Virus record (IMG/VR): IMGVR_UViG_3300039098_000011
Span: 1 to 43,982 of that record
Source of the DNA: a virus
Length of the DNA: 43,982 bases
Reading direction: 5' to 3' (one strand)
Shown: piece after piece, positions 36,642 through 37,517 of the stretch
How the letters are laid out: every line of letters starts with the position of its first letter
Position numbering within the stretch: position 1 is the first letter of the stretch
The notes under the pieces: generated by a model
Seen by the model: the letters and a program-made list of their open reading frames with translations, nothing else
What the model was told of the DNA's origin: nothing
The model's database searches: none
Program-made: the position numbers and the translations under genes

Positions 36642-37517
36642 ATGAAATATGAGATGGTAAAAGAAACTCTTTCAAATAATTTATCTATTCCCTTTGGGGA
36701 GAAAGTTAAGAAGTTAGAAGAGTTAATGCTTAAAGAGCCTCAAGCTGAGTGTCCTGTTACTCATTCTTTCCTTCCGGGTACTTACATTAGAGAAATGAAA
36801 ATGGCTGCGGGAGTACTTGCTATAGGACATTATCATAAGACTGCACATAAGAATATCTTTTTCAAGGGAAGGATTCTCGTTCCGAAAGAAGATGGCTCAG
36901 TTGAAGAACTTGTAGCACCTATGGAATTTATTGGGCAACCGGGAAAGAAGATTGGATATGTCCTCGAGGATGTAGTATGGTTTAATATCTTTGAGACTAA
37001 TGAACAAGATATCAGTGTTCTTGAAGAAATATTTCTTGATAAAGAAAAGTCTACCCCTGTTTATCCATATCATATAGATCCTAACCACCAACTTGAGTAT
37101 AAAGAGATACTTGATGAGTTAGGATATACAGAAGAAGAAGTAAGGCAGCAATCAGAAATTGATATTGATTTGATTCCTCTACCATTTGGAACTTATAAGA
37201 TTGCTATAGCAGATTCTCCAATAGAGGGGAAAGGTATTTTTGCTACTGGAAAGATTAAGAATGGAGAAATTCTTGCTCCTGCAAGATTAGATGGATATCG
37301 TACTCCCGTTGGTAGATATACTAACCACTCTAATAATCCTAATTCTAAAATGATAGCCGATATTAAAGGAGATCTTTACCTCATAGCTATTAAAGATATT
37401 TGTGGGATGGCAGGAGGTATTTTTGGTGAAGAACTTACTACTGATTATAGAGATACTAGAAAACTTGTGGAAGAATTAGAAGGAGATAAAATATGTCATC
37501 AGCAATTACAGCAATAG
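36642..37517 (+). CDS. Cupin-like N-domain fused to a SET-domain (lysine methyltransferase-like) C-domain
   Basis: SET motifs are EGKGIFA, RYTNHSNNPN and GEELTTDY (aa ~184-270). The N-domain G-VLAIG-HYH-KTA-H-KNIFFK-G fits cupin motif 1. Confidence 0.65.
   Translation: MKYEMVKETLSNNLSIPFGEKVKKLEELMLKEPQAECPVTHSFLPGTYIREMKMAAGVLAIGHYHKTAHKNIFFKGRILVPKEDGSVEELVAPMEFIGQPGKKIGYVLEDVVWFNIFETNEQDISVLEEIFLDKEKSTPVYPYHIDPNHQLEYKEILDELGYTEEEVRQQSEIDIDLIPLPFGTYKIAIADSPIEGKGIFATGKIKNGEILAPARLDGYRTPVGRYTNHSNNPNSKMIADIKGDLYLIAIKDICGMAGGIFGEELTTDYRDTRKLVEELEGDKICHQQLQQ

Follow-up and report, generated by a model that had tools for sequence, protein, structure and literature searches.

The virus genome held in the IMG/VR database as IMGVR_UViG_3300039098_000011 was analyzed over positions 1–43,982, and this whole stretch of 43,982 nt is referred to below as the window. 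A coding sequence (CDS) on its + strand (36,642–37,517) specifies a protein of 291 amino acids (aa) in which a small cupin-fold barrel is followed by a minimal SET domain, the catalytic fold of protein-lysine methyltransferases. Judged from residue conservation and a predicted structure, this cupin-SET protein is likely to be an active SET enzyme carried on a cupin scaffold. Comparison with related loci showed that in P22-like podophages and prophages the slot directly upstream of the gene for a gp7-like protein is conserved as the place of the cupin barrel, and that the barrel is the core of the family while the SET domain is an accessory that comes and goes among close relatives.

The SET Domain

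An earlier note on this DNA, made from the sequence alone, had described three SET signatures in the correct order, and these were borne out by comparison with relatives. The CDS has the coordinates given there (ATG at 36,642, stop codon at 37,515–37,517), and the quoted strings lie where they were placed: EGKGIFA at residues 195–201, RYTNHSNNPN at 225–234 and GEELTTDY at 262–269, as well as the cupin string GVLAIGHYHKTAHKNIFFKG at 57–76. In an alignment of 55 relatives (29–77% aa identity), residues S192, G196, G198, R220, T221, G224, N228, H229, N234, E264, T266 and Y269 are invariant, including those of all three motifs, and these are the S-adenosylmethionine (AdoMet)-binding and catalytic positions of SET enzymes. 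The Pfam SET model (PF00856), a search recommended in the note, was matched at 26.4 bits (gathering cut-off 22.4, E=9.8e-6), the match covering residues 222–269 only. A profile of the C-terminal domain built from 21 relatives matched the SET domain of MLL1 (E=7e-9) and the vSET protein of PBCV-1 (E=1.9e-6), and the profile alignment covers both the block with the GxG strand and the NHSxxPN...ELTxDY block.

The structure of the whole protein was predicted with AlphaFold2 (AF2) on an alignment of relatives, giving a mean predicted local distance difference test score (pLDDT) of 90.9 and a predicted template modelling score (pTM) of 0.86. Since the pTM is high, the relative placement of the cupin and SET domains can be regarded as confident. 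The pLDDT is lower at residues 131–150, around the start of the linker, and falls below 50 for residues 284–291, so that the last ~8 residues are of low confidence. Foldseek searches with the model returned SET domains and small metal cupins, in agreement with the two folds that the note had suggested. For the SET part, the Protein Data Bank (PDB) matches were SETD8, vSET, MLL1 and EZH2, all with a probability of 1.0; the match to vSET (3kma) had a target-normalised template modelling (TM) score of 0.65 and a root mean square deviation (rmsd) of 3.2. Searches of the BFVD database retrieved SET proteins of giant viruses and uncultured phages with rmsd values of 1.4–1.6, among them a Marseillevirus SET protein with an rmsd of 1.4 over 92 columns, and viral cupin models were also matched there.

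The domain is unusually small for a SET domain. It resembles PBCV-1 vSET (A612L) and the minimal viral SET proteins in its small size, in lacking the pre-SET and post-SET zinc clusters and in carrying the same three motifs, but it is even smaller than vSET, combines a Gly-rich GCxGGxxG insertion with a fused cupin and belongs to a virion/ejection module of a phage, whereas the SET proteins of eukaryotic viruses act on histones. MLL/KMT2, SETD8 and EZH2 are its best matches by sequence and structure, and the catalytic Tyr and the NH pair are kept; unlike these enzymes, it lacks a normal SET-I region, a post-SET Zn cluster and the domains for partner complexes, and its host is bacterial. SET-I, normally a part of the substrate groove, is nearly absent (~10 profile positions, compared with ~45 residues in MLL1); in this the domain departs from typical SET proteins, although no catalytic motif is affected. 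No post-SET zinc cluster was found, and the Cys of the NHSCxPN motif is not conserved among the 55 relatives. The Gly-rich loop directly precedes ELxxDY and is well conserved (G255 in 48/55, G258 in 46/55, G259 in 45/55 and G262 in 52/55 relatives).

The Cupin Domain and a Putative Metal Site

In the AF2 model, residues 39–118 are entirely β-structure, and Foldseek matched the N-terminal domain with a probability of 1.0 to TM1459 (8awp), 3d82, 2fqp, 5by5, ectoine synthase, DddK and oxalate decarboxylase (target-normalised TM scores of 0.5–0.65). At the sequence level, the relationship is much fainter. A profile of the cupin domain gave 11 listed matches in the PDB (E values up to 10), all sub-threshold, of which seven are cupins (E 0.024–1.2) and four are unrelated; the best were 9bwf (E=0.024) and the TM1459 variant 8awp (E=0.085). 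The search of the cupin clans for which the note had called gave no Pfam match at threshold for the window protein, and among 18 relatives only sub-threshold matches to Cupin_2 (5/18, best E=0.0052) and Cupin_3 (3/18) were seen.

The string at residues 57–76 fits the cupin motif 1 pattern G-x5-H-x-H-x3-[E/H]-x6-G, with His69 in the place of the Glu. In the sub-threshold profile alignment, H63, H65 and H69 fall on the three His residues of the HSHPWEH (HxHx3H) segment of TM1459, which supply three of its four Mn ligands. The correspondence is exact, and the motif 1 reading is therefore right. Cupin motif 2 (G-x5-P-x-G-x2-H-x3-N), the source of the fourth metal ligand, gave no regular expression match in the window protein; a near-invariant K103 sits about where the motif 2 His would be in the alignment to the cupin 9bwf. 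The His triad is also variable within the family. Among the 55 relatives, H63 is kept in 48 and H69 in 47, while position 65 is Gln in 40 and His in 13. In more distant homologues the triad reads A/H/H (phage RSK1), R/H/C (Vibrio phage 1.067.O) or Q/Y/H (phage PH1), and it is lost in homologues that have no SET domain. The residues that are invariant across the family, standalone homologues included, are Y48, R50, G62, G76 and G101, and Q34, H41, F43, E51 and W113 are nearly so. The protein in the window could bind a metal via three His residues, but metal binding is not a defining feature of the family. Of the metal-cupin proposal in the earlier note, the fold and the form of motif 1 stood; with motif 2 absent, the triad degenerate and the Pfam matches sub-threshold, the metal site itself is only plausible.

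Among small monocupins, TM1459 (a Mn-cupin) and members of Cupin_2 share the barrel fold and the HxHx3H form of motif 1, but the window protein differs from them in lacking motif 2 and its His, in its varying ligand positions and in the sub-threshold level of the sequence matches.

Position among Ejection-Protein Genes

The gene order in the window is SU10-like adaptor, 706 aa hub, cupin-SET, and then three genes of 150, 497 and 1524 aa. The cupin-SET gene therefore stands, as the earlier note had it, after the tail-hub gene and before three ejection-protein-like genes, in a slot that corresponds to gene 14 of P22 and gene 13 of T7. The 25 nt overlap with the next gene was likewise correct, since the downstream open reading frame (ORF) begins at 37,493. 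The product of that gene (150 aa) aligns with the downstream-gene products of Rhodoferax phage P26218, Pseudoalteromonas phage PH1 and RSK1, and with P22 gp7; its match to the Pfam T7_gp14 family is weak and sub-threshold (E=0.0077). Profile searches with the 497 aa protein gave no family match, and those with the 1524 aa protein gave no significant one, the only hit being a sub-threshold match to Glycos_trans_3N.

The link to virion and ejection genes proposed in the note holds well beyond the window. In ~70 of 79 IMG/VR loci the next gene is gp7-like (its product starting MS[GA][IV]ATA[IV]VG...) and abuts or overlaps the cupin gene, with gaps of −25 to +3 nt; values of −25, −13, −4, 0 and +1 recur among related loci. 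The same slot holds fusions in P26218, MW202744 and PH1, and the cupin only in RSK1 and Vibrio phage 1.067.O. The standalone proteins of the latter two (RSK1 ORF13 and NVP1067O_12), which represent phrog_12032/phrog_24280, are 31–46% identical to the N-terminal domain of the window protein, but differ from it in lacking the linker, the SET domain and the H63/H65/H69 triad.

The hydrophobic N-terminus of the gp7-like proteins (MS-G/A-I/V-ATA-I/V-VG-x-AV-IGG) is very well kept across hundreds of otherwise diverged phages. These proteins are Lys-poor overall (~2.3–2.7% Lys), and the copy in the window is unusual in carrying a Lys-rich stretch, QKKQAKKVEKKQKEQ.

A Conserved Cupin with an Optional SET Domain

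Fused and standalone forms of the cupin are intermixed. Identity between cupin domains of the two classes reaches 88%, and when nearest neighbours were determined by the cupin domain, a fusion was nearest to 28 of 99 standalone proteins and a standalone protein to 24 of 274 fusions. A matched pair of prophages illustrates this, one in Paraburkholderia with the SET domain (L087, 283 aa) and one in Burkholderia cenocepacia without it (L088, 157 aa), both in the same module. The module begins with P22 portal, scaffold, P22 coat, adaptor, Phage_stabilise (P22 gp10) and two to three small genes. Next comes the cupin gene, SET+ or SET−, and after it three ejection-protein-like genes, of which the last encodes an SLT or glucosaminidase domain, and the tailspike gene. 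The junctions are 4 nt overlaps.

Among the ~270 relatives listed, the only fusion partner of the cupin module is SET, apart from one duplicated cupin. The idea that the cupin is a polymorphic effector carrier with varied partners was considered and rejected: besides SET, only a tandem bicupin (P0121), a frameshift-like case (P0156) and an extension (P0174) were found. P0121 is a metagenomic protein of 264 aa that consists of a tandem cupin duplication and lacks SET. P0174, a metagenomic cupin-SET protein of 545 aa, has an N-terminal extension of 285 aa that looks by eye like a family-2 glycosyltransferase and may be a real fusion or an artefact of gene calling.

A Cys residue is present in the tail after ELxxDY in 72 of 168 fusions (~43%), and among the tails listed it is mostly third-last (…CQE, …CLE, …CQQ). 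In the window (37,490–37,517), the TGT codon of this Cys shares bases with the start codon ATG of the downstream gene (aTATGt). The residue is therefore probably a side effect of the start codon that the gp7-like genes conserve in another frame, and not a functional Cys.

Family Size and Existing Annotation

The full-length protein matches phrog_34170 (E=9.9e-75), a family with no function assigned there, while its N-terminal domain (residues 6–139) matches phrog_12032, 'short tail fiber protein', and phrog_24280, 'tail fiber adhesin'. In a collection of 5.8 billion proteins, 115 clusters have the same two-domain architecture (~270–295 aa), and relatives are encoded on at least 469 IMG/VR stretches. 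The closest 150 relatives form ~100 clusters when grouped at 50% identity. With the N-terminal 145 residues as query, an exhaustive HMMER search gave 3178 representatives at E≤1e-3; the best 147 new representatives comprise 99 with SET and 48 without (127–264 aa). P26218 and PH1 are cultured phages that carry the fusion.

Database labels for members of this family are diverse. In one metagenomic GenBank phage record the homologue bears a label that refers to the structure of PBCV-1 vSET, NCBI names the homologues of Paraburkholderia prophages 'SET domain-containing protein-lysine N-methyltransferase', a JGI label for one homologue is 'quercetin dioxygenase-like cupin', and the Nahant Vibrio phage records label the standalone form 'RmlC-like jelly roll fold protein'. 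The earlier note was not aware of any described podovirus module of this kind. At the level of databases this does not hold, given phrog_34170, the vSET-labeled record and the NCBI names; in the literature, our searches found no paper on the cupin-SET fusion. The protein is not a categorically new system, because both of its folds have been described before and the family is catalogued and partly auto-annotated. As far as our literature searches show, what is new is the architecture of a cupin anchor with a sub-minimal SET domain, the finding that P22-like podophages and prophages systematically carry it in their ejection-protein module, and the implied part of lysine methylation in assembling virions or delivering DNA.

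The label 'short tail fiber / tail fiber adhesin' is found on the records of RSK1, RSB3, phiAp1, H4/4, R8W and Firinga, where it clashes with both the fold and the gene position. It is very likely wrong for the cupin module and appears to have spread by similarity without experimental support: the R8W paper offers a predicted model only, and the P26218 paper states no evidence.

P22 gp14 and the Shared Slot

Gene 14 of P22 (L006:8911-9366) follows the hub and needle genes and immediately precedes gene 7. It has been known as a 'head assembly' gene for 50 years. The protein belongs to Pfam DUF2824 and is annotated as 'head morphogenesis/assembly'. An AlphaFold model built with 28 relatives had a pLDDT of 90.0 and a β-α-α-β3-α-β-α-β2 topology, and Foldseek matched it to GNAT N-acyltransferases, namely SpeG, PseH and a protein acetyltransferase (query-normalised TM ~0.8, E=1e-8). 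In a profile search of the PDB, a weak match to the GNAT enzyme PseH was the only meaningful one; the top matches, 'Cake' and 'Scone', were discarded as artefacts that sum weak matches to designed repeat proteins.

Homology between the cupin domain and gp14 was rejected, as the hhalign probability was 0.1, the PHROGs differ and gp14 has a predicted GNAT fold. The two proteins are thus alike in gene position and in a predicted enzyme-like fold acting on amines, but they are not homologous, and the fold predicted for gp14 is GNAT, not cupin or SET. Given this prediction, the slot can apparently hold an enzyme-like fold and not a structural protein. On the predicted structures, one slot would be occupied by two unrelated folds, GNAT and SET, both with known members that transfer groups to amines. 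The parallel concerns position and chemistry and is no evidence of a shared substrate. It is a rather doubtful extension that the slot is a recurrent home for enzymes that covalently modify lysines or other amino groups, with modification of ejection proteins, or of host targets by a co-ejected enzyme, being general. In the introduction of 10.64898/2026.09.03.749273, gp14 is not among the P22 virion or E proteins named.

Possible Roles of the Cupin-SET Protein

In the role that we tentatively propose, the cupin-SET protein would be an active AdoMet-dependent protein-lysine methyltransferase, made late and together with the ejection proteins. Its cupin module would dock it to an ejection-protein or portal-proximal assembly step, a task that in P22 would fall to the unrelated fold encoded in that slot. 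The SET domain would then methylate lysines of an internal/ejection protein of the phage, or of another virion protein, during assembly, and methylation would change the stability of the target or its behavior after ejection. We rate this package as a whole, an active late lysine methyltransferase that is linked by its cupin to ejection-protein assembly and methylates an internal or virion protein of the phage, at slightly short of an even chance.

Several points weigh against it. The docking step is drawn from gene position only, and the frequent loss of SET argues against an essential role in assembly. With SET-I almost missing, catalysis may need the cupin or the linker, or may differ from that of canonical SET enzymes. 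No difference in lysine content was detected between the gp7-like proteins of 76 SET+ and 27 SET− loci, in what is a crude and weak test: the first 60 residues contain on average 2.08 and 2.30 Lys, respectively, and the overall Lys fractions are 0.023 and 0.027. An alignment of seven gp7-like proteins likewise displayed no obvious lysine signature. Literature searches gave no activity, substrate or virion-proteome data for any member (RSK1, H4/4, R8W and P26218 were looked for).

The same enzyme could instead be packaged and ejected, with the cupin carrying the protein into the capsid and the injected SET domain methylating host proteins at the start of infection; the targets proposed are nucleoid-associated proteins, translation factors and defence proteins. 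Other podophages and myophages package enzymes, such as the vRNAP (virion RNA polymerase) of N4 and Alt of T4, and SET enzymes of bacteria and archaea have been reported to methylate chromatin-like proteins, as in the action of Chlamydia cpnSET on Hc1 and of Methanosarcina Go1-SET on MC1. The tight coupling of the gene to those for ejection proteins would suit such an effector, as would the optional presence of SET among close relatives, which is often seen for host-directed accessory functions. On the other hand, this acidic protein lacks membrane and signal features, and SET is the only partner of the cupin (the duplicated cupin aside) among the relatives listed, unlike the situation in polymorphic effector carriers. 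The slot analogue gp14 is also missing from the P22 virion and E proteins named in the introduction cited above. We consider this effector role unlikely, though it ranks next after the assembly-time role.

A smaller chance is given to the cupin being itself enzymatic, as a metal oxygenase, hydroxylase or demethylase-like protein that would pair a writer with an eraser or modifier, or acting as a small-molecule regulator of the methyltransferase. The correspondence of H63, H65 and H69 with HxHx3H of TM1459, the alternation of conserved polar residues on consecutive strands (Y48, R50, H63, Q/H65, H69, N71, K103 and E109), which suggests a lined pocket, and a pTM suggesting that cupin and SET form one unit would all be in keeping with this. 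The lack of motif 2 and of any Pfam cupin match at threshold speaks against it, as do the degenerate triad in most relatives, with standalone proteins keeping only Y48, R50 and the glycines, and the absence of JmjC or 2-oxoglutarate (2OG)-oxygenase structures from the top 50 Foldseek matches. Such a function is quite improbable.

We think it highly unlikely that the SET domain is dead and has become a structural or binding module, for instance one that recognises lysine-containing tails of a partner. The extremely short SET-I and the Gly-rich loop inserted beside ELxxDY could be read in that way, but dead domains normally lose the AdoMet-binding and catalytic residues, and it is exactly these (G196, G198, N228, H229 and Y269) that are invariant in more than 50 relatives of 29–77% identity. 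The PHROG matches and several GenBank records would make the protein a short tail fibre or adhesin. This is scarcely credible for a 105-residue globular cupin barrel joined to an enzyme domain and encoded inside the ejection-protein block, with the tailspike genes further downstream, and the label looks propagated by similarity.

Features of the Gene and Genome

Bases 1–86 of the window are identical to bases 43,897–43,982. Given these identical ends (an 86 bp terminal overlap), the window represents a circularly closed, complete phage genome of ~43.9 kb, with a GC content of 40.5%. No near-identical genome or close relative was found among 50,697 GenBank phage records, and searches with NCBIfam and PADLOC gave no matches. 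The idea of a recent horizontal gain of the SET part was rejected, since the GC and GC3 (third codon position) values of the cupin-SET gene agree with those of the adjoining genes, and with this base composition there is no sign of recent import. Antisense ORFs near the gene are short, have no matches and were treated as spurious.

A scan of the region 33,500–40,000 found 23 promoter-like sites, with 22.3 expected, and thus no excess. Eight terminator-like hairpins were found in the same region, compared with 2.7 ± 1.8 expected from shuffled sequence; their stems are all of 5–7 pairs and they are probably not functional. One of these weak hairpins (37,214–37,231) falls inside the SET-coding region, and the scan therefore neither shows nor excludes a signal within the gene. 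The features of the gene and its neighbors are collected in Table 1.

Table 1. Coordinates of the cupin-SET gene, its parts and the neighboring genes in the window.
Feature	Position	Strand	Basis and remarks
Tail hub/nozzle-like gene, 706 aa	34516..36636	+	phrog_8094 'tail appendage', E=1.5e-81; in related loci, Phage_stabilise (P22 gp10) upstream
Whole cupin-SET gene, stop included	36642..37517	+	291 aa, 33 kDa, isoelectric point (pI) 5.05; full-length match to phrog_34170
N-terminal helical segment, residues 1-29	36642..36728	+	AF2 helices H3-11 and H18-29; within phrog_12032 match (residues 6-135)
Cupin-fold β-barrel, residues ~30-135	36729..37046	+	Foldseek probability 1.0; core module of the family, alone in many phages
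Cupin motif-1-like G57-x5-H63-x-H65-x3-H69-x6-G76, possible metal ligands	36810..36869	+	Regular expression match; aligned with HSHPWEH of TM1459
Acidic linker between domains, residues 136-182	37047..37187	+	AF2 helices H148-160 and H164-171; pI 4.09
Minimal SET domain, residues 183-270	37188..37451	+	Pfam PF00856 above gathering score; profile and Foldseek matches
EGKGIFA, GxG AdoMet-binding motif	37224..37244	+	G196 and G198 invariant
RYTNHSNNPN, NHSxxPN motif	37314..37343	+	N228, H229 and N234 invariant
Family-specific Gly-rich insertion G255-x-x-G258-G259-x-x-G262, consensus GCxGGxxG	37404..37427	+	MLL1 has a 6-residue gap there (profile alignment)
GEELTTDY, ELxxDY motif, predicted catalytic Tyr269	37425..37448	+	E264, T266 and Y269 invariant
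C-terminal helix, post-SET-like flank	37449..37514	+	AF2 helix H269-290
Junction with next gene	37480..37517	+	AAGGAG Shine-Dalgarno sequence at 37480-37485, still within the cupin-SET coding sequence near its 3' end; ATG at 37493; overlap 25 nt
First ejection-protein-like gene, 150 aa	37493..37945	+	N-terminus hydrophobic (MSSAITAIVVSAIS); gene analogous to those for P22 gp7 and T7 gp14
Second internal/ejection-protein-like gene, 497 aa	37952..39445	+	Position; synteny with P22 gp20-slot genes in related loci L001, L003, L087 and L088
Third, giant internal-protein gene, 1524 aa	39448..43982	+	Crosses the contig junction through the 86 bp overlap and ends at ~126

Significance

The methylation of protein lysines by SET enzymes is best known as a hallmark of chromatin in eukaryotes, and our literature searches found no paper that links it to the way tailed phages assemble their virions or deliver their DNA. 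If the cupin-SET protein is active, it would reveal either that injected phage proteins undergo a new kind of post-translational modification or that a new class of enzyme is injected to modify the host. Both can be approached with the cultured phages that carry the fusion (P26218 and PH1) and with the natural SET+/SET− pairs in Burkholderia and Paraburkholderia prophages, and the predicted GNAT fold of gp14 provides a parallel, testable hypothesis in the model system P22. If the slot does prove to be a home for such enzymes, covalent modification would count as a general step of podophage infection that has gone unnoticed so far. It could, for instance, protect injected proteins by shielding their lysines from proteolysis in the host or from defences based on ubiquitin-like conjugation.

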